A stretch of 64,000 nt of DNA from a virus, in IMG/VR virus record IMGVR_UViG_3300012351_000007, positions 21,699 to 85,698 of that record. One strand, 5' to 3'. Below, piece by piece: positions 2,511 through 33,167 of this stretch. The notes beneath the pieces are model-generated. The model was given only the letters and a program-made list of their open reading frames with translations, had not been told where the DNA came from and searched no databases. How positions within the stretch are numbered: position 1 is the stretch's first letter; every line of letters begins with the position of its first letter. Position numbers and translations under genes: made by a program.

Positions 2511-5500
2511 CTAGTGGAACTGCCACGCCATCTCGTGACTGACCGCCGCCGCTATCTCCGCTGGGCTGTGATCGGGCTGCGGGTAGACGGGGATGGTGAT
2601 GTTCGGCCCGTCCGACCCGATCCGGCGGACCTGCTCGTCGGTGAGCACGAACTCGTTGCGGCCGGTGTCGTTGCGGGCGATCGTCAACCCGGGCGGCAGG
2701 ATGCCGCCCCCGTCGAAGTGGCCGACGTGGGCGAACGAGGAGACGGAGGTGACACCCCGACCGACAACGAACCCGTCACCGCCCCTGGACTCGAACGGCA
2801 GGCCCGCGAACACGCCCGCGGTGTGGCCCACCGAGCTGCCGCCCGGACCACGCTCGCCCGGGTTGGTCCAGCCAGCGGTGAAGATGCCGCCGAAGCCGCG
2901 CAGCGGGAAGTAGGGTGCCTCGTTCATGGTGGAGAACTGGTGTACGTACGGGGATTGACCATGCGCCAACCGCCATACAGCTGAGGTCGCACCGCTGCAG
3001 TCGTAGCCTCTTGGCCCCGCACTGGCCCAGATGTACGGCTTACCCGCCTGCGCCCGGATCCATGCCTGGATCCCGGCGATGTTGCCCGAGATGGGTCCGG
3101 TGAACGCTGGCCCGTAGAACACGGCCGCCCGCAGTTCGTCGGGGGTCGGCTTCCATAGGTTGGCAATGTTCACCGGGAACGGCCAAACGACAGGGCCGCC
3201 GCGCGCGAACGCGAGACCGCCGGACCCGTCGCCCGGGTAGCGGGTCTGCGGCGGCTTCAACATCCCGGCAAGCACCGCGTTGCGCAAGGCGGTGACCGCC
3301 GAATGCCCACCGGCCGCCTTCACCTCATCGGCGGTCCAGATGTGTTCGTCCAACGACAGCCGGTACCGCACGCCGGGGATCGGCCCGAGCGCCGGGATCG
3401 AATCGGAGGTGGTGGTGCCGGACCCGTAGACGGGTCCGCCTGTGGCGTGCCCGCCGACATCGGCCCGCCCGCCTGCGGTCGGGTTCTGCTCCCGCCAGAT
3501 CCTCGTGGCGGTGGGCACGTCGACACCTTGCCGTAGCGAGATCTGGGCGATCTCCAGGTTCTTCAACTGGTCCAGGGCACCCTGCACACCGGACACCTGA
3601 ACCTGGGTTGACACGTCGGTGGGTACCCGGCCGTAGGTGTCGATTAGGTGGTTGACCTGACCGGAGTCCAGGCCCAACTGCTTGGCCTGCTCCTTGATCG
3701 TCCTGATCTGGTTGTCGTGTTTGGCGGTGGCCTCTTCCACGGCGGTGCCGTTGCGGACCTGCGCGAAGTACTCGTCGTCGGCGGCCTTGAGTAGGTTCTT
3801 CACCGCGTCGTAGTTGTCCCGCGCCGACTGAGTGTTCAGGCCGATGTCGTGGGAGCCCTGCTGGACGGACTGGCTTAGCCGGTCCTGGGCGGCCTTGAAA
3901 TCCTCAGCGGCTTGGTCGGCGGAACGCATCGCACCGAACAGGGCGTCGTCGGCCTGCTTGAGCGCGTCGGCCTTTTGCGCGGCTGTCGATGTCCGGTCGG
4001 CGAGCACGTTGAGGGCGTTACCGAGGGCCGCCTGCGCGGCGGTCTGCTTGTACGCCGAGTCGGCCGCCTTGTCCTGCTGCCCGGCGAGGATGGCCTCCAC
4101 CTGGGCGTTGTCGTTGATCTGGCCGTAGGTGCTTTTCAACGCGTCGCGTAGTTGCCGTTCCCGGTTGAGCTGCTTGAGGCCAGCGTCGGACAGCGAGAAG
4201 TTGGAGAACTGCTCCTCGTCCTTCTTGATTTTCGCGTCGAGGGCGGCGGTCACCTCGTCCTGGGCGCCCTTCTCGCCCTTGAGTGCCCGCACCAGCGCGT
4301 CGCTGGTGATGCCGTAGTCGCCGGCCAGCCGGACTGCCCGGGAGAAGTCCTCATTCCCCTCGACGATTGACTTCACGGTGTCCTTGTTGGCGCCGCCGGC
4401 CGCATTGAGGGCGGTGTGCAGCGCGACCATGGCCCGGGTGAGTTCCTCGGTGCGTGCCCGCTGCGCGGCGAGGGCGGAACTGACGGCGGTGAACGCGATG
4501 AACGCGCCCGCCACGGCCAACCCGATGACGCCTCCGGTGCCGAGCCCCGACGCGAGTTGACTCAGCGCCCCACCGGCGCCCTGCGCCCCGCCCTTGATGC
4601 CTGCCAGGGCGGTGCCGAACGTGCCGAACGAACCGGAGGTGCCGGCCATCGCCGTACCGGCACCGGCGACCGACGCGTTGTAGATCCGCTGGGCGGCGGC
4701 CCAGATGGGCAGGAGGGTGACCTGGGCCGCTTGGATGGCCTGCCACGCCTTCATGGCCACCACAACACCGGAGATTGTCCCGACGAGGACGGTCAGCACC
4801 GGGATCGGCAGGACGTTGATGACATCGGCGAGCAGCCGGATCGTGGTGATGACGACCCCGCCGACCGGCTGCGCGGCCTCGGCGATTCGCCCGACGGCCA
4901 CCACCAGTTGGCCGAGGACGGCTATCACGATGGGGGTTTCGGTGCGGATGTAGCCGAGCAGGTTCTGGAAGCCGGTGTTGTGTTCCAGGCTGGTGCCCCA
5001 GTAGGCGAACCGTTCCGATAGGTACAGCAGGCCCTGGCCGAAGTTCTGCCCGATGGGTAGGACCGCCCGGACCAGCCCGGAAACCCCGACAGCGGCGTTG
5101 GCGGCGGCAGGCGCGAATATGATCAGCGCCGTGTTGGCCTCCCCCGCCATGAAGTGGAAGAACGACTGCCAGTAGGGGGCGGCGAGTGCCCTTCCCGCCT
5201 CGGCGGCAAGGTTGCCCATGGTGCGGGAAAGGGTGCCGACATCGCCGATGATCTGGGGCATGACCGGCAGCAGCGCCGAAATGCCGGTCTGCAACCCGGG
5301 CAGGAACCCGGCCTGCGCGGCGGCGGTCAGGTCCAGCCACACCGGCTTCAGCGAGTACAGGAAGGTGGCGAACGCCTGACCCTCCGGGGACAGAGCGGCC
5401 ATCTTCTGCCGCAGCGTGTCCATCGCCGACGACCCGGCGGTGCCGGCGGCGACGGTGGCCTGCTGCAGCGACCGTTGCGCCGACACCACACCCTGCGACG

Positions 5501-6863
5501 CCTGCGCGATGGCGAAAGCGTTCTGCCGAGCCGTGTTGCCTTCGGCGATGCGGGCATCCGACAGCGCCTGGGTGGCCTTACGCACCTGATCCTGCGACTG
5601 GGTGACCCGATCCTGGGCGGCCACCACCTGCTGGGAGCCGTTGACGCCCTGGCGCTGCGCGGTGGCCAGATCCTGCTGGGCCCGCTGCTGCCGGATACCC
5701 AGGTCGGTGATCTGCTGCTTGGCCTGGTCGTACTGGAGTTGCGCTTCCTGCCGGGCCAGCTGCGACGACGCCGGGTTCGCCCGGACCGCCTGCAGGTTCA
5801 GTTCGGCCTTCGTCAGGTCGATCTGCGCCTGCCGCTGCGACAGGGTCCCGTCGGCGACCTGGGTGGCGAGGTCTTCCATCGCCCGGCGGGCCGACTCCCG
5901 GGCCCGGGTCAGGTCCTGCTCGGCGAGCAACGCGGCATGTTCGGCCTGGGTCAGGGACTGCTGCGCGGTGGTGACCGCCTCCGCAGCGCGACGCTGCGAG
6001 TCGGCGGCGTTGGCGCGGGTGTTGGCCAGGGACCGTTCAGCGGATGCGACCGCATCCTGCGCGGAGGCGACCTGCACCTGCCGGGACGCCAGTTGCACGG
6101 CGTCCTTGGCGGCGGCCTGGTCGGCGGTACCCATCGCCTTGACCGCATCGCCGATGCCGTGGGTGGCGAGCAGCACCACACCGAGGCCGGCGACGGCGCC
6201 CAACGCCCCGGCACCGATCCCGGCCACGGCGGCGGCGCAGGCGGCGGCGACGGGGATGATGCCCGGCCCGAGGGCCAGCCCGGCGGCGAGGAGCGCACCC
6301 ATGCCGCCCGACGAGCGGTCCGCCGCGCCCTTCACCGACTCGACTTCGGCGGCAGCCGAAGCGGCGTTGGTGTCGATGTGGACGTTCGGGTTCAGTCGCC
6401 CGATCTCGTGGACCTTCTCGATGAACAGGTCCAGTTCGGCGGTGGCTCGGGCGGTGTCGGCGGTTATCTGCGCCGAGGATGTGCCGGTGGACAGGCGGTC
6501 CAGTTCGGTCCGCAGTCCGGCGAGTTTGCGGTCCGCCTCGGACGTGTCGGCGCCGATCTTCGCGTTGGGTAGCGACTTGAGGGCGGCCTCGACGCGGCGG
6601 CGGAACGTGTCGGCGAAGGATCCGCCGGCCTGCTCCCCCGCCCTAGCGGCTTTGCCGGTGGCGTCGCGGGCGCCCTTGGCCACCCCGTCGCCGACTCCGG
6701 ATGCGATCCGGTCGGCCATCGCCTTGGCGATGATGGCACCGAGGTCGCTGCCGACCTTCGCGGCCTGCCCGGAGGTCTGCGCCTGGAATTTCGCGAAGAA
6801 GCCCTCACTTGAGGGCAATACATCGACGTATACCGATCCGGTGGAGGCGCCTTCGCTGGGCAT
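2511..6863 (-). CDS. Tape measure protein with C-terminal NlpC/P60-like peptidoglycan hydrolase domain
   Basis: 1450 aa, Ala/Gln-rich helical with hydrophobic segments; GSVYVDVLP N-terminus; YIWASAGPRGYDCSG...GHTA motif. Confidence 0.92.
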   Translation of the reverse strand: MPSEGASTGSVYVDVLPSSEGFFAKFQAQTSGQAAKVGSDLGAIIAKAMADRIASGVGDGVAKGARDATGKAARAGEQAGGSFADTFRRRVEAALKSLPNAKIGADTSEADRKLAGLRTELDRLSTGTSSAQITADTARATAELDLFIEKVHEIGRLNPNVHIDTNAASAAAEVESVKGAADRSSGGMGALLAAGLALGPGIIPVAAACAAAVAGIGAGALGAVAGLGVVLLATHGIGDAVKAMGTADQAAAKDAVQLASRQVQVASAQDAVASAERSLANTRANAADSQRRAAEAVTTAQQSLTQAEHAALLAEQDLTRARESARRAMEDLATQVADGTLSQRQAQIDLTKAELNLQAVRANPASSQLARQEAQLQYDQAKQQITDLGIRQQRAQQDLATAQRQGVNGSQQVVAAQDRVTQSQDQVRKATQALSDARIAEGNTARQNAFAIAQASQGVVSAQRSLQQATVAAGTAGSSAMDTLRQKMAALSPEGQAFATFLYSLKPVWLDLTAAAQAGFLPGLQTGISALLPVMPQIIGDVGTLSRTMGNLAAEAGRALAAPYWQSFFHFMAGEANTALIIFAPAAANAAVGVSGLVRAVLPIGQNFGQGLLYLSERFAYWGTSLEHNTGFQNLLGYIRTETPIVIAVLGQLVVAVGRIAEAAQPVGGVVITTIRLLADVINVLPIPVLTVLVGTISGVVVAMKAWQAIQAAQVTLLPIWAAAQRIYNASVAGAGTAMAGTSGSFGTFGTALAGIKGGAQGAGGALSQLASGLGTGGVIGLAVAGAFIAFTAVSSALAAQRARTEELTRAMVALHTALNAAGGANKDTVKSIVEGNEDFSRAVRLAGDYGITSDALVRALKGEKGAQDEVTAALDAKIKKDEEQFSNFSLSDAGLKQLNRERQLRDALKSTYGQINDNAQVEAILAGQQDKAADSAYKQTAAQAALGNALNVLADRTSTAAQKADALKQADDALFGAMRSADQAAEDFKAAQDRLSQSVQQGSHDIGLNTQSARDNYDAVKNLLKAADDEYFAQVRNGTAVEEATAKHDNQIRTIKEQAKQLGLDSGQVNHLIDTYGRVPTDVSTQVQVSGVQGALDQLKNLEIAQISLRQGVDVPTATRIWREQNPTAGGRADVGGHATGGPVYGSGTTTSDSIPALGPIPGVRYRLSLDEHIWTADEVKAAGGHSAVTALRNAVLAGMLKPPQTRYPGDGSGGLAFARGGPVVWPFPVNIANLWKPTPDELRAAVFYGPAFTGPISGNIAGIQAWIRAQAGKPYIWASAGPRGYDCSGATSAVWRLAHGQSPYVHQFSTMNEAPYFPLRGFGGIFTAGWTNPGERGPGGSSVGHTAGVFAGLPFESRGGDGFVVGRGVTSVSSFAHVGHFDGGGILPPGLTIARNDTGRNEFVLTDEQVRRIGSDGPNITIPVYPQPDHSPAEIAAAVSHEMAWQFH

Positions 6864-8376: not shown

Positions 8377-8451
8377 TTAGCCGATGCCGAGGGCGGCGTT
8401 AACGGCGGCGCAGACGTGCACAGCGACGTTGAGTACCAGGTTCAGCAGCAT
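8377..8451 (-). CDS. 24-aa hydrophobic micropeptide MLLNLVLNVAVHVCAAVNAALGIG
   Basis: ATG...TAA with GGAAGGA RBS and high GC3; below the ORF-track cutoff. Confidence 0.6.
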   Translation of the reverse strand: MLLNLVLNVAVHVCAAVNAALGIG

Positions 8452-8477
8452 GGGGTTCCTTCCGGTTCGGTTGGTTG

Positions 8478-8735
8478 TTACTCGGCAGCGGGCACTTCCA
8501 CGGCGCCCGCGTCGTCGGGCAGCGGCACATCCACGTAGCGCACCGCGGCGGCCGGCTCGTCGAGTTCCCGGGTGGCCTCCCAGTCGGCGCGTTCCTCGTC
8601 CGTGGGCTGCCGGGCTTCCCCGGTGCCGAGCATCACCCGGCCCAGCTCGTCGGGCACCTCCTCCAGATTCCCGATGCGGGTCAGGTCGGGGCCGAGTTTC
8701 GCGGCGTCCGGGACGTAGACGATGTGGACGAGCAT
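8478..8735 (-). CDS. Hypothetical protein (85 aa)
   Basis: AAGGAG RBS, in operon. Confidence 0.7.
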   Translation of the reverse strand: MLVHIVYVPDAAKLGPDLTRIGNLEEVPDELGRVMLGTGEARQPTDEERADWEATRELDEPAAAVRYVDVPLPDDAGAVEVPAAE

Positions 8736-21307: not shown

Positions 21308-22987
21308 CTACGTGCTCGCTGGCTGGGTCACGGCGCCGTCCGGGTTCCCGTCGGCGGTGGTTCCGTCCCCCGGTGGGGTGTCGGCCCCCGACATTGGCCC
21401 TGTTCCGGCCGTAGCGGGGTCCTGCCCGGTGCGGGCCAGCCCTGCGGCCGTCTGCCCGAGACTGGTAGGCGCGGACGGCCAGATGAAGTTCCCGTCCTCG
21501 TCGACCTGCGCGGCCACCAGCTCATCGGTTCTGGCCACCCCCATCGCCGTCAAAAGCAGCCGCAGGATCTCCTCGGGCCGGACGGTGCCGGTCGAGTCGG
21601 CCTGCACGATCGCCTGCACCAGCGACAGCGGATCCACCGTCGCCAACTCCGGCCAGGTGATGTCGATCGTGTCGGGGGTGTCCCCGTCCAGGATCACCGT
21701 TTCCCGGTCGTTCTCATCCCGCGTGATCCTGCCCTTGAGGGCGCCCTTCGGCGCGCGCACCGACTCGGCGATCACATGGTCGAGGATCGAGCGCAGGAAC
21801 TCCGACCACAGGGTTTGGCGTTGCGCCATCTCCAGTTCGGTCGGCTGGTCCAGGGTTTCCGCGGTTGCCCGCGCGCCGGTCTGGCCGGGGTCGGCCAGCA
21901 GCATCGTCACCGGCACACCCAACGCCGCAGCGACCATCATTGCCAGGGGCCGGCCGGATTCGGCGTCGATGGTGGCACCGGACTTGGGGATGGCCTCCAG
22001 TGACGCATCGGCCGGCATGATCGCCGTCGCCCCCGACGACAGCGGCAGCCCGGTCGCCGGGTCGATCGACGGCGCAGCGGCTATCTTCGCCCTGGCCTGA
22101 CCTGCGGCCTGACCCTTCGCGGTCAACCTCCACGCAAACCGCGACAGCGACTTGACCAGCCTCGCCCAGTCCTCCAGGAACTCCTTGTACGCCTTCGCCC
22201 AGTCGATCGCGGCATACACGTCCGGTACCCCACGGCGCCAGCCCAGCGGCACGTTGACGGCGAGGTGCACGATCGGGGAGTCCCACGCGATGGGGATCCC
22301 GCCGAACGCCGCCGGCCGCTGCGTGGGCCGGTAGCCGACCGCGGGGTAGAACCGTTCCCGCAGCGTCGGGTTCACGGTCCCCGTCTGGTTGTCGAGGGCC
22401 ATCTCGTTCCAGCGGCGGTGGTAGTACCACGGTTCGGTGGCGTCGTCCGGGTTGCAGATCACGTCGGCGATCTCGTCGGCAACCACCGTCCGTGCCTGCA
22501 CGGTGCCCGTCAGGGGCTTCGTGAACAGGACCACGAAGATTTCCCCGTCGTGGCCAAGTGCCCGCTCCAACTGCTCCCGCGCGGCCGGACCCGTCACGGC
22601 ACGCCGGTTGCCCCGGTCGTCGAGGAAGGCTTGGATGACCGCGTTGACGTCCTGCTCACCGCTGTTGCGCCCATCGGCGCGGGCGGCGAGCTCGACCCCC
22701 TGGCCATGGACATATGCGACCTTAAGGGACAACCCCCGGCGCACCAATGGGCTCTTCAGGGCGTATATCCGGCATATCGCCCGAAGTTGGCGCAGACCCT
22801 CGGGGCGGAACTCGACCTCGGCCAGCGCTGTGAGTCGCACCCAGCCTGGGTCAAAGAGCTGGCGCTCAAGGTCAACTAGACTTTCCTGGAGCAATTCCAC
22901 TGTGGACCGTTCGCGGTCCAGATCCTCCCGCAGTTCCGCCTCGCGCATCTTGCGCTTCGACGGGGCAGCGAGGGCAGGGGTGGACAC
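21308..22987 (-). CDS. Portal protein
   Basis: 559 aa between terminase and MuF; DGEIF, RGVPDVYAAIDWAKAY, GARATAETLDQPT motifs. Confidence 0.88.
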   Translation of the reverse strand: MSTPALAAPSKRKMREAELREDLDRERSTVELLQESLVDLERQLFDPGWVRLTALAEVEFRPEGLRQLRAICRIYALKSPLVRRGLSLKVAYVHGQGVELAARADGRNSGEQDVNAVIQAFLDDRGNRRAVTGPAAREQLERALGHDGEIFVVLFTKPLTGTVQARTVVADEIADVICNPDDATEPWYYHRRWNEMALDNQTGTVNPTLRERFYPAVGYRPTQRPAAFGGIPIAWDSPIVHLAVNVPLGWRRGVPDVYAAIDWAKAYKEFLEDWARLVKSLSRFAWRLTAKGQAAGQARAKIAAAPSIDPATGLPLSSGATAIMPADASLEAIPKSGATIDAESGRPLAMMVAAALGVPVTMLLADPGQTGARATAETLDQPTELEMAQRQTLWSEFLRSILDHVIAESVRAPKGALKGRITRDENDRETVILDGDTPDTIDITWPELATVDPLSLVQAIVQADSTGTVRPEEILRLLLTAMGVARTDELVAAQVDEDGNFIWPSAPTSLGQTAAGLARTGQDPATAGTGPMSGADTPPGDGTTADGNPDGAVTQPAST

Positions 22988-23182: not shown

Positions 23183-23244
23183 GCCCACCCCTTGCCGCTC
23201 AGACCCGCTCCGGCCAGTGCCACGTGCCGCCGTGGAGTTTGGCC

Positions 23245-23430
23245 TCGCGCCATCCGCAGGAGCATTGACTTCCTCCACCGCCGTGAACGGCGGGGATTCC
23301 CTCCGTGCTGCGCGTGGAACGCACAACGCCCGGGTGGGTTCCTGGTTCATCGCAGTCCGCCCGGGCAAGCCCAGGTCTTACGTCTACTCCGCAGGCGTTT
23401 TCCGTCTCCGCAAGCCCTGCGGCGACGTTT
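23245..23430 (-). ncRNA. Putative TnpB omegaRNA (reRNA) scaffold plus flank-derived guide
   Basis: Region matches the tnpB 3'-end/right-end overlap that encodes omegaRNA in IS605-family elements; predicted guide TGCTCCTGCGGATGGCGCGA; boundaries approximate. Confidence 0.65.
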
Positions 23431-23571
23431 GGTGCGTCGGGCTCCAGCTTGGTTATCGCTGGAGCCCGGCCGGACGGTACCACAGTCAAGGGCACTGCTC
23501 GGGCCTTGGCGGCCCTCCCAGCGCGGGCCTTCACCCCCGCCCTCAAGGGCGGAGCACTGGCCCGCATCCCG
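23265..23571 (-). mobile_element. 307-bp non-autonomous IS200/IS605-family element (left end + omegaRNA-like scaffold + right end; no tnpA/tnpB)
   Basis: Left-end hairpin after CTAC; right-end hairpin CCGCCGTTCACGGCGG ending GGAGGAAGTCAA; no target duplication; TnpB-C-terminus-like residue NVAAGLAETENACGVDVRP. Confidence 0.88.
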
Positions 23572-23867
23572 GTAGCGCATGGGGTTGCCGTGGATCTCCG
23601 GGTTCAGGCAGTCGGGTGATTCGGGCTCCTCTGCACCCTCGTCGTACCGGCAGCCACCGGCCGCGAGCGAATGCAGGAAGATGCCCGTCGGGTTCAGTAC
23701 CGCCAGGACAACGCGCTCGCCGCCGAGACTGCGCGGCACGCCAAGCTCGACCTCGGTCACGATGGCTGCGCGGCACTCTGACCTGAACTCGCCACCCGGG
23801 GTTCCGAACGAGACATAGTGCACGACGCGGCCGACCGACGGCTGCTGGTCAACCACAGGCGCTCCGT

Positions 23868-25360
23868 TCAGTACAGGCTGATCAGCGCCTCGTCCTCGGT
23901 GTCTTCCTCTTCGAGGACCCGGTCGTCGAGCAGCAGCGGGTTGAGTAGCAGCCGGTTCAACGCCTGCGACATGGCGTCCACCCGGTCATCGTTCGCCGAG
24001 AAGGGGAAACCTGCGCATTCCTCCACAACCTCGCCGACCCACGGGGCCAGTTCGGGGGCCGGCAAGAACACGTTGCCGGCCTGGACGAACGGCGACACGG
24101 CTGCGGCACGGGCCTTCTTCGACCCGTCCGGCTCGACCGGGATCAGCCCGGCGACGGTGCGCCGCAGGGCGTTGACGACGGCTGGGCCGTTGGCCTTGTC
24201 CTCAACGAGTTTCGCGGCAGCCTGCGGCCAGCGGGCCGAAAGCGTACGGACCTTCAGGCAGGTGGTGACGAAGTCCATCCGGTCGTGCACCTGGTCAAGC
24301 AGGTACGCCTGCACGCCACGGCGGCCCCACACCTGCCCGCACACGAAGTCTGTCCCGGCAGAGTCCTTGAAGGTCATATCCCACGAGGCGATCAGCTCAT
24401 CGAAACCGACCGCGATCCGGGTACCCTCGTCGCGTTCCGTCCACTGCGGTGTGTCGTAGTAGCGCCACCACTCGCGTTGGAAGATGTTGCCGGCGACCGG
24501 GTTGGGCTTGCCCTGAAACAGGGCCGTCCACGACTCGGCGCCGACTTCCTTCTTCTTCTTCTCCCAGTCGACGACGGTACGGCCGCGGGTGGACTGCATG
24601 TACTCGCCGGGCTGCCGGCCCAGCGGGTCCGTCTCGCCCTTCTCGGGGCGGTGGTCGGCCTGGGCCGGGATGTTGATGACCCGCCAATGGTCGGGGCCGT
24701 CTTCCTTCAGCCGCCAGCCGGTCAGGTCGTCATGCGTCCAGCGCGTCTGGATGATCACCACGGCGACACCGGGGCCGAGTCGGGGGATCGCCACATCGGT
24801 GTAGAAGTCCTCGACGGTTTCCCGCCACGCCGGGGATTCGGCCGCCTCACGGTCCTTGTACGGGTCGTCGATGATCAGCAGGTCGACGGGGCGGGACGTG
24901 AGCGAGCCACGGATCCCGACGCAGTACACGCCACCCTGACGGCTGGCGATCTCCCACTCGTTCGCCGCCGCCGAGTCGGGGTTGACCGACAGGCCGAGAC
25001 GGTCGCCGTGCAGCATGATGTCGTCGCGGATGAACCGGCCCCACCGGCGGGCGACGGTGTGGGCGTAGGACACGATCGCGATGCGGGTGTCCGGGTTGCG
25101 GTGCAGCACCCACTCCGGGAAACGCCGGGAGGTGCGCTGGCTTTTCCCTCCTGAGGCGCCAGGGAGATCATTAACCGTTCGCAGCGGCCCTCGGCCACGT
25201 CAATCAGCGCCGCATCGATCAGGCCAAGGGCTGGCGTCTGGACGGTACGCGGGTCGAGCGCCCTGGCAAGGTCACCCGGTGTCGGCCACTGCGACACCCG
25301 GGGGCCAGTCGGCTCGAATAGGCGTGCCGCAGCCTCCCACGCGGACAACGTCCCGGTCAT
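23868..25360 (-). CDS. terL: Terminase large subunit, split by a -1 frameshift in Walker A
   Basis: RLMISLAPQEGK|SQRTSRRFPEW; Walker B LLIIDD; QTRW; SWD; VEDKANG; DDRVDAMSQAL nuclease motif. Confidence 0.9.
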
Positions 25361-25962
25361 GCCGCCACCGCCCTCAGGTGCCGAGGGACCACCGTCGCAA
25401 CCTTCGCCTGCTGCTCCGCAGACAGGCCGAGGTCGTCGAGGATGGCCCGGATCACCGAGGCGAGTAGTTGGCCCTGTTGCTCGGCCAGCCGCACCCGGCG
25501 TTCCTCCACGCCAGCCTGGATGGCCGCCTTGCACACGTCGAGCAGGTGCCGGCGTTCTTTGTAGTACAGGTCCAGCCACACGTTCGGCGCCGCAGCATGG
25601 GTCACGTCAACCCCGACGAACTCCCCGGCGCCCTTGTCGACCTCTTCCGTCTTCCCCCAGACCAGCGCATCACGTTCGATGGCCTGGACCTGCTGGCGTA
25701 GCCACGCCACATGCCCGGCGGTCCACTTCACCTCGTCGAGAAGAGCCTCCGTAGGGGACACATCGACGGGAAGGCCGTAGGTCTGTACCGCCTGCTCCGC
25801 CGCCTCGTCCTGAAGCCGCCGTTCGGCGGCAGCCAGGGCGCGAGGCGAGTTGCCGCCGTGAGACTCGCACACCTGCTGGCCGTGGCGGGGCCACTTGCCG
25901 CACGGCTGGCCGTTGCGCTTCCTGGCCTTGCACTTCGACCTAGGTCCGATGGGTTCGCTCAT
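25357..25962 (-). CDS. Terminase small subunit-like protein (HGG-motif Zn finger)
   Basis: CKARKRNGQPC...VCESHGG; directly upstream of terL with ATGA coupling. Confidence 0.75.
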   Translation of the reverse strand: MSEPIGPRSKCKARKRNGQPCGKWPRHGQQVCESHGGNSPRALAAAERRLQDEAAEQAVQTYGLPVDVSPTEALLDEVKWTAGHVAWLRQQVQAIERDALVWGKTEEVDKGAGEFVGVDVTHAAAPNVWLDLYYKERRHLLDVCKAAIQAGVEERRVRLAEQQGQLLASVIRAILDDLGLSAEQQAKVATVVPRHLRAVAA

Positions 25963-26192
25963 GCCGCTGGGTCCGATGGGTTGACGGAACGGGGAGCGCC
26001 GTCCCGGGCCTCGACGTGCGTCACGTAGGCGTCCCGCCACCTGCGGGCGGCGTCCTGCCACTCGGGGGTCTGCGACTCCCAGCCGCCGTCAACGGAGGTG
26101 ATCAGCCCACAGGCGGTGTCCAGCAGCCACTCGGCGGCAGCGTAGGAAACGGTCACATCCGGGCCGGGTGGCCGTCCCCTGCGACGCGACAT
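25959..26192 (-). CDS. Hypothetical protein
   Basis: MSRRRGRP...WQDAARRWRDAY. Confidence 0.55.
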   Translation of the reverse strand: MSRRRGRPPGPDVTVSYAAAEWLLDTACGLITSVDGGWESQTPEWQDAARRWRDAYVTHVEARDGAPRSVNPSDPAA

Positions 26193-32710: not shown

Positions 32711-32837
32711 TCGGGGTGGCGGATCGATCACCGTAACCAGCTAGATCGACAGCCGTTCACCGGATCACCCTTGCGTAGGACATCGCCTACCTGTCACCAT
32801 CGATTTCAACGGCCAGCGAAATCCGGGGAGGAGGACC

Positions 32838-33065
32838 ATGGCGATCCGCCTCGTGCGTGGCGTCCTCACCGACGGCGCCGTGGACATCAAGATCTGGAAC
32901 GCACTCGTCGCCGCCGGGGTGTCCGTCGCCGAATGCTCGTGCGGGGAGAGCGCCGACGGGGACCCGATCACCGAAGGGCGGGGGCTGACGTTCGCCGCCG
33001 TGAAGTGCCGGGGCTGTGGGGTAGAGGCGTGCCGGCCCGTCAGCCCGAGGACGGTTGCGGCCTGA
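32838..33065 (+). CDS. Small Zn-ribbon protein
   Basis: GAGGAGG RBS; CSC and CRGC motifs. Confidence 0.65.
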   Translation: MAIRLVRGVLTDGAVDIKIWNALVAAGVSVAECSCGESADGDPITEGRGLTFAAVKCRGCGVEACRPVSPRTVAA

Positions 33066-33167
33066 CGACTCCGACCGCGCGGAGGTTGTACAGCCTCAAC
33101 CTCTTGTCGTGGGCTCATCGGTCAGCTCCCAGGAGACCCCCGGCTTTAGCCGTGGGGAGGAAGTCAA
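33063..33167 (+). mobile_element. Orphan IS200/IS605-type right end with upstream hairpin
   Basis: CCCCCGGCTTTAGCCGTGGGGAGGAAGTCAA; shares terminal GGAGGAAGTCAA with the 23265 element. Confidence 0.7.

Follow-up and report, generated by a model that had tools for sequence, protein, structure and literature searches.

The window analysed here, a stretch of 64,000 nucleotides that comprises bases 21699-85698 of the 85,698-bp IMG/VR virus record IMGVR_UViG_3300012351_000007 (G+C content of the record, 69%), contains among its phage packaging genes a 307-bp insert that interrupts a small conserved gene and has the character of a miniature IS200/IS605 element of the kind known as a palindrome-associated transposable element (PATE). 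On the minus strand, the genes follow one another in the order terminase large-subunit (terL) open reading frame (ORF), small phrog_2293 gene (the interrupted one), 60-aa ORF and portal gene, and the element lies in the sense orientation relative to this terL-portal operon. The insert holds no conserved protein-coding gene. The small gene has homologues in Streptomyces, Kitasatospora, Catenulispora and Microtetraspora, so the host of the phage is an actinobacterium. An earlier note, made from the letters of this DNA, had described the insert as a protein-free mini-element that keeps its guide RNA, and every sequence feature that it listed was found where it had been placed (Table 1; positions are those of the window unless another contig is named).

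The insert separates the codons for Tyr95 and Cys96 in a conserved phage gene of 116 aa (...ATG CGC TAC / TGC TCC TGC...). Its excision in silico gives back the family C-terminus, ...HGNPMRY/CSCGW...GGTWHWPERV, with no target duplication, and the restored end CSCGWREAKLHGGTWHWPERV agrees with uninterrupted homologues of 114-117 aa, whose consensus end reads ...HGNP[MF]RYC[PGAS]CGW.EA...GGTWHWPERV; the completion of the upstream ORF that the note had described was thus borne out. Because the downstream 66 nt and the uninterrupted homologues together rebuild the C-terminus, the insertion is exact to the nucleotide and duplication-free. The ORF as it stands today consists of 95 genuine codons followed by 74 element codons and a stop at 23347. 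The phage may tolerate this truncation, since its record holds, ~340 bp past the right end of the TnpB element, an intact paralogue of the short form (P0006, 100 aa, G000:C1:18361..18062), and short forms occur naturally. The same paralogue was considered as a repair scar and rejected, natural short forms being common, and a contig joint that skips 406 nt, considered as an excision product, was rejected as well, being the short paralogue itself (G000:C1:18062-18361). No joint that skips exactly 307 bp was seen in the run contigs, which drop rare variants and are therefore silent on excision.

Table 1. Positions of the insert, its parts and neighbouring features in the window.
Feature	Position	Strand	Remarks
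Insert, non-autonomous IS200/IS605 element (PATE), 307 bp	23265..23571	minus	Host frame restored on removal; borders match copy L199:294-568
Host gene, N-terminal 95 codons (phrog_2293)	23572..23856	minus	Frame now runs on into the element
Host gene, C-terminal 21 codons and stop	23199..23264	minus	Translation CSCGWREAKLHGGTWHWPERV, then stop
CTAC insertion motif (like a transposon-adjacent motif, TAM)	23572..23575	minus	Abuts left end; from Arg94-Tyr95 codons CGC TAC
Left end	23514..23571	minus	Includes subterminal hairpin; fold z = -2.7
Left-end hairpin CTCCGCCCTTGAGGGCGGGG	23554..23535	minus	
30-nt segment	23484..23513	minus	Missing from copy L199; 1-nt indel in sibling assemblies
Extended -10-like motif (TGnTAnnnT) TGGTACCGT	23474..23482	minus	Candidate promoter
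5' hairpin, perfect 10-bp stem GGGCTCCAGC/GCTGGAGCCC, loop GATAACCAA	23439..23467	minus	
tnpB 3' coding remnant NVAAGLAETENACGVDVRP	23373..23429	minus	Now part of RNA scaffold
omegaRNA-type scaffold	23265..23427	minus	Match to model R1, positions 1-163/163
Right-end hairpin	23296..23274	minus	
Right end GGAGGAAGTCAA	23276..23265	minus	
Terminus GTCAA	23269..23265	minus	
Predicted guide, 3' flank TGCTCCTGCGGATGGCGCGA	23245..23264	minus	Host-gene codons 96-102; placed by analogy with ISDra2 guide RNA
terL ORF	25109..23868	minus	Pfam Terminase_6C, phrog_38
Portal gene	22987..21308	minus	Assignments in the neighbourhood rest on Pfam Terminase_6C, phrog_38 and phrog_10963
49-bp left-end/right-end fusion of the record's TnpB element	33119-33167	plus	Flanks CTCAT (33114-33118) and AAGTGC (33168 onward)

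The ends of the insert connect it to autonomous elements of Streptomyces. Over its nucleotides 10-46, the insert shares 92% identity with the left ends of L134 and L135, two annotated elements on Streptomyces plasmids that are laid out as left end, divergent tnpA, tnpB and right end, and as much as 97% with left ends from Streptomyces genomes (L174, L169). In 15/15 full-length relatives, whose flanks are otherwise unrelated, the motif CTAC stands before the left end, as it does in L134 and L135 and in two copies of the mini-element (GCTAC in the window, and the metagenomic copy L199 described below), which supports the proposal that CTAC is the insertion motif. The right ends of the full-length relatives all finish in GTCAA, after which the sequences are unrelated, and the mini-element ends likewise. 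Imperfect subterminal palindromes with similar CCGCC/GGCGG stems are found at both ends, and terminal inverted repeats are absent.

Over its last ~170 nt the mini-element can be aligned, with no large gap, to the tnpB 3' end and the right end of full-length elements (alignment A3), and the mini scaffold has every invariant column of that alignment. The RNAalifold consensus consists of a nested core (CCUG...CAGG around two helices) and the right-end hairpin, with double compensatory changes in 9 of the 20 pairs. A covariance model built from 41 full-length elements only, with the mini-element left out (R1), matched 23427..23265 over all 163 positions with 113.2 bits (E ~1e-25), well outside the range of chance; for comparison, the independent autonomous element L134 scored 171 bits and the 3' end of the record's own TnpB gene 62.6. 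The short coding remnant NVAAGLAETENACGVDVRP within the scaffold aligns with residues 379-401 of the record's 425-aa TnpB, and its DNA is 75-89% identical to tnpB 3' ends of mycobacteriophages. With the ends, the motif and the scaffold taken together, the identification of the insert as a protein-free, non-autonomous IS200/IS605 element (PATE) with an omegaRNA-type scaffold, as the note had proposed, is strongly supported. A quite different reading would see in the insert a self-splicing element, such as an IStron-like group I intron or a ribozyme, whose removal from the transcript would keep the host gene in working order. IS605-family IStrons do exist (bioRxiv 10.1101/2023.11.20.567912) and the insert does lie in the sense orientation inside a gene; we nevertheless find this reading hardly conceivable, given that no Rfam intron or ribozyme matched the element, even at E<=10, and that the ends and the omegaRNA scaffold fill almost all of the 307 bp.

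An exact-word scan of metagenome contigs revealed a second copy (L199:294-568), which is ~93% identical to the phage copy outside one 30-nt indel and matches R1 over its full length with 110.1 bits. The similarity is confined to the sequence between GCTAC and GTCAA, and the flanks of the second copy (GGGCTAC on the left, TTACCTG on the right) are unrelated to those in the phage, so that the borders given in the note are exact. The L199 junction recurs as a loose end in the soil run X3, and a TnpB-like ORF near this copy is distant (26% identical) and has a different right end. In run X7, from a different study, a 295-nt contig spans the element from 23264 to 23550 at ~90% identity and shows a third flank. 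The copies in the window, L199 and X7 have the same gene-less architecture, namely left end, TGGTACnGT, 10-bp hairpin with the loop GATAACCAA, tnpB remnant, scaffold and right end. Because three copies with different flanks share this architecture, the deletion of tnpB predates the insertions, and the mini-element itself appears to transpose. It is accordingly very improbable that a full-length tnpB element entered the phage gene and lost its interior there: the tnpB 3' remnant inside the element would fit such a history, which is already contradicted by the presence of the same internal junctions in copies at unrelated loci with different flanks, the deletion being older than the insertion.

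Upstream of the scaffold, the three copies allow constrained and unconstrained parts of the element to be told apart. The 30-nt segment at 23513..23484 is apparently unconstrained, because it is missing from L199 and carries an indel in sibling assemblies (P0123/P0124 read ...GRQGPEQCP and stop in place of ...GRQGPSSALDC, owing to 1 nt). The -10-like motif is present in all three copies and differs only at its free middle position, which is C here, A in L199 and G in X7; related viral elements have similar TGnTAAGAT motifs just upstream of their tnpB starts. A scan with the E. coli-type sigma-70 consensus returned no promoter, as is expected for high-GC Actinobacteria, and is uninformative. 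The 5' hairpin folds as DNA with z = -5.0, and none of 200 shuffles did as well. Neither this hairpin nor the middle part of the element (nt 40-150) has a counterpart in the full-length elements that were fetched, and a pattern scan of IMG/VR for the hairpin gave a sole match (L220), which is unrelated and due to chance. We also observed a 122-aa ORF (23199-23567, minus strand) whose ATG lies 5 nt inside the element and which follows the frame of the tnpB remnant into the last 21 codons of the host gene; it has no family match, is disrupted by indels in L199 and in sibling assemblies, and is probably a by-product of the high G+C content.

The differences between the copies strongly preserve the helices of the RNA. 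Of the substitutions in X7, 15 affect paired positions, in 10 pairs altogether; all 10 are still paired, five through double changes and several via G.U. When the same number of changes was placed at random, 0 of 10,000 trials did as well. The 5' hairpin of X7 has four stem pairs changed on both sides, all of them still paired, with the loop unchanged, and in L199 two of the three touched pairs are compensated on both sides. The compensated pairs are located in the internal helices P2 and P3 and in the variable hairpin, far from the ends, and the G.U intermediates in these internal helices point to selection at the RNA level. These patterns indicate that the RNA module of the mini lineage is maintained by selection.

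The opposite possibility is that the element is an inert hitch-hiker whose RNA module goes unused, the apparent conservation being due to the needs of transposition at the DNA level or to the small number of copies. Only three copies are known, one of them rebuilt from a table, and TnpA needs the end hairpins as DNA, both of which lend this possibility some weight; G.U states, however, pair in RNA and not in DNA, and the compensated pairs lie in internal helices. A further argument comes from a 49-bp derivative, located elsewhere in the window (Table 1), of the record's own TnpB element. In this derivative the start of the left end and a left-end-type hairpin run directly into the right-end terminus AGGAAGTCAA, which looks like the result of a deletion between the GTGGGGAGGAA repeats common to both ends, and there is no omegaRNA scaffold (17.6 bits with R1). 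If the derivative is still mobile, ends alone would suffice for movement, which would suggest that the mini-element keeps its scaffold for the RNA; yet 163/163 scaffold positions have been retained, at 113 bits in the window and 110 bits in L199. On balance, we regard the hitch-hiker explanation as unlikely.

Several points weigh against the interpretation of the insert as a mini-element with a maintained guide RNA. The set of helices used for counting compensation was derived in part from the window sequence, and the X7 sequence is a reconstruction from a table of differences in which four are not listed. It may be as DNA, for TnpA, and not as RNA that the end hairpins, and possibly the 5' hairpin, are kept. 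The promoter is a consensus-level motif only. No curated Rfam family rose above its gathering score on the element, the best matches being sub-threshold (RAGATH-18 with 23.2 against a gathering score of 44.9, HgcC with 16.3 against a threshold of 50); to our knowledge, Rfam has no model for the clade of the mini-element. Finally, no full-length scaffold parent of more than 90% identity was found, the best being 70-83% identical among 63 genome loci and 75% identical among 401 Streptomycetaceae genomes. The same 401 genomes contained no copy of the mini-element. A lack of autonomous elements with matching ends, which the note had named as a refutation, does not apply, since the Streptomyces elements described above have such ends.

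Exactly one TnpB is encoded in the record (G000:C1:16429-17706, equivalent to L002:322-1599), ~4 kb upstream of the first base of the window, and no Y1 transposase (TnpA) is encoded in it. The TnpB is apparently intact over its 425 aa, matches Pfam OrfB_IS605, Cas12f1-like_TNB and HTH_OrfB_IS605 as well as NCBIfam guided_TnpB, is similar to ISDra2 TnpB (E 2e-60) and has the RuvC-type motifs GVDLG, VEDL and HDRDLNAAKN. The right end of its element reads ...GGGGAGGAAGTCAA/GTCCGTCTCC, and its last 12 nt, GGAGGAAGTCAA, are the same as in the mini-element, so the two RNAs would end alike. These features make it conceivable that the orphan guide and the record's own TnpB form a weapon that serves the phage by cutting element-free siblings, with homing in the terL-portal region or superinfection exclusion as the outcome. 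The target falls within an RYC codon motif, conserved in a phage gene that is widespread and adjoins the packaging genes, and the guide has no second target in the record. A 2026 review, moreover, counts 'transposon non-restorative homing' among the theoretical possibilities, with co-infecting phages or plasmids as recipients, and cites TnpB-driven spread in a plasmid population (PMC13565253).

The details of the record's TnpB element argue against this partnership. The protein shares only 38% identity with TnpB from the elements that the mini-element resembles in its RNA, and its own RNA region is short of one hairpin present in the mini scaffold, has other indels and scores 62.6 bits with R1 against 113.2. 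The flank is (C)TCAT at this element and at the 49-bp derivative and TCAC or TTAC at close relatives, in no case CTAC. Judged by these comparisons, the TnpB of the record is of another lineage than the scaffold of the mini-element. In characterised systems the TAM read by TnpB is the target of the transposase (PMC8612924; PMC10055086), and a TnpB of the TCAT/TCAC type is for this reason not expected to license cleavage next to CTAC. An insertion that truncates a conserved gene also fits poorly with service to the phage, and no close element-free sibling was found. We therefore consider the phage-serving weapon improbable; host IS605 elements of the CTAC group that carry both tnpA and tnpB are the likelier partners of the mini-element.

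Both the TnpB element (L002:215-250, equivalent to G000:C1:16322-16357) and its 49-bp derivative (window 33107-33130) lie directly against the start codon (ATG) of an ORF on the minus strand, since their flank TCAT gives ATGA when reverse-complemented. Read on that strand, the tip of the left end is GGGAG(A/C)TGACCG and places a Shine-Dalgarno-like GGGAG ~8 nt upstream of the ATG, so that the neighbouring gene (window ORF 33118..32765, 117 aa) may owe its ribosome-binding site to the element.

The explanation that we favour, and that we think probable though well short of certain, is that the insert is a mini IS605 element that has no genes left, has kept its omegaRNA and depends on proteins made elsewhere. 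A member of the Streptomyces-type group that inserts 3' of CTAC, it has lost tnpA and almost all of tnpB and has kept both hairpin-bearing ends, a family-specific 5' module (the -10-like motif and the conserved hairpin) and the complete ~160-nt omegaRNA scaffold, which normally overlaps the 3' end of tnpB. It transposed, as a mini-element, into the RY/C codon junction of the small conserved gene between terL and portal, in the sense orientation, and so truncated that gene. A Y1 TnpA would be needed in trans for its excision and insertion and a cognate TnpB for use of its RNA, both proteins most likely coming from IS605 elements of the actinobacterial host and not from the record's own TnpB element. 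Its RNA could be made from its own TGnTAnnnT motif or by read-through of the operon; a role of the motif as RNA promoter is suggested because the free position differs in the three copies while T, A and T are kept. A compatible TnpB would load the scaffold together with ~16-20 nt of flank (starting TGCTCCTGCGGATGG) and would cut CTAC plus guide, that is, the empty site. Such cutting would restore the element after excision by TnpA and could, in principle, convert element-free genomes during co-infection.

The only match of the guide TGCTCCTGCGGATGGCGCGA in the 85.7-kb record is the occupied site, which is preceded by GTCAA and not by CTAC, and which is probably protected because GTCAA takes the place of CTAC. 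The earlier note had identified the target with the element-free allele of sibling phages. No such allele was found among close siblings, all near-identical assemblies carrying the insert; the closest allele without it has 77% protein identity. A search of IMG/VR with the N-terminus of the host gene returned relatives of at most 71% identity and no close sibling, with or without the insert. A chimeric protein (P0001) that combines the N-terminus of the paralogue with the interrupted C-terminus looked like a co-conversion tract and was not used as evidence, as it may equally be an assembly chimera across the stretch common to the paralogues. Homing or superinfection exclusion would be a plausible function, and the general idea has been raised before (PMC10055086; PMC13565253). 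A bolder proposal is that the mini-element represents a lineage of guide-only hyperparasites, protein-free omegaRNA cassettes with a promoter and a 5' hairpin of their own, which would borrow any compatible TnpB and TnpA from the host or from co-resident elements and would amount, in a phage, to an RNA-only gene drive. If this were true, a borrowed nuclease would cut element-free siblings at the RY/C site by terL and portal during co-infection, and repair would copy the cassette, perhaps with flanking alleles of packaging genes, into them. We advance it tentatively, as an unlikely idea that still deserves consideration.

Scaffolds that have no nuclease gene beside them are also found elsewhere among viral contigs. 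In a small sample of such contigs, the upstream sequence was long enough for assessment at 30 scaffold matches of 50 bits or more, and a full TnpB preceded 19 of them, a partial one four and none the remaining seven. Because seven matches had no TnpB and four a partial one, TnpB-less omegaRNA cassettes may be common in phages. On the minus strand of the viral contig L112, scaffold matches occur at 394-555, 3002-3166 and 6263-6419 (113.5, 108.5 and 52.9 bits) with only partial TnpB homology upstream of each, and this contig may carry an array-like cluster of degraded or mini elements. The viral contig L040 (IMGVR_UViG_3300003329_000051) has a full-length TnpB element and a gene-less mini-element ~180 bp long, which has a left-end hairpin, a tnpB remnant and a right end (2817-2974 and 8406-8554); its two scaffolds do not match each other, as in the present record.

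One observation concerns the neighbouring terminase gene. Of the terminase profiles, the terL ORF (413 aa) covers the C-terminal part only (phrog_38 positions 331-705, Terminase_6C), and the ORFs 24875..25579 and 25357..26061 overlap upstream of it (region 23868-26061, minus strand). This arrangement suggests that another frame encodes the ATPase part of the terminase, the gene being either split, frameshifted or read with a programmed slip.

Cas12 descends from TnpB-omegaRNA systems, and by what route guide and nuclease came to be independent modules is still an open question of evolution. PATEs have long been on record. The locus offers a clean natural example of an omegaRNA module that has outlived its nuclease gene and appears still to move. 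Because the mini-element appears both to move and to evolve under RNA-structure constraint, guide-only elements can be treated as a selectable unit. The locus, in a conserved phage gene on a replicon that also holds an unrelated TnpB element and a 49-bp end-only derivative, is also suited to testing the cross-compatibility of TnpB lineages with foreign guides, as well as the theoretical TnpB-driven homing between co-infecting phages.

Among known systems, the guide RNA of ISDra2 TnpB from Deinococcus radiodurans offers a close functional model (Karvelis et al. 2021, PMC8612924; structures 8bf8, 8exa, 8h1j). This right-end element RNA (reRNA), ~150 nt long, is composed of the tnpB 3' end and the right end, and its last ~16 nt are a guide derived from the flank (PMC8612924); the RNA predicted here would be built in the same way. 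ISDra2 reads the TAM TTGAT, in contrast to CTAC here, and the nuclease gene is absent from the present element. RAGATH-18 (RF03064) is the guide RNA (reRNA) of IS607-type TnpBs (PMC11061315). Its sub-threshold match falls on the helical core, where CCUG.GGAG ... GAUGAA.CAGGAA aligns to nt 177-233 of the mini-element; by the Rfam criterion, however, the mini-element is not a member, and its relatives are IS605-type elements with a Y1 tnpA. Phage homing endonuclease genes, whether free-standing or carried by introns (T4 seg/mob, the td intron), and the proposed non-restorative homing (PMC13565253) offer a further parallel, since the predicted target is the element-free allele and spread by break repair is conceivable. 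Unlike the homing endonuclease genes, the present element carries no nuclease, its empty sibling allele was not found, and the likeness is purely inferential.

The nearest relatives in kind are the PATEs, including the gene-less ISGst-like elements of Geobacillus stearothermophilus (PMC10055086), which are likewise protein-free, have hairpin ends and insert without duplication 3' of a short motif, and which retain an omegaRNA for use in trans by a TnpB encoded elsewhere. According to Meers et al. 2023 (PMC10055086), omegaRNAs for use in trans are often encoded by PATEs, so that the kind of element described here is already known. The present element differs from those PATEs in its location within a structural-module gene of an actinobacterial phage record, in its membership of a CTAC-targeting, Streptomyces-type group, in its family-specific 5' hairpin and -10-like motif, and in the evidence from three copies for the upkeep of helices after the loss of tnpB. 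What is added here is the location in a phage, in a conserved gene beside the packaging genes, the presence in the same record of a TnpB element that does not match it and of that element's end-only derivative, and comparative evidence that an orphan RNA has been kept up.

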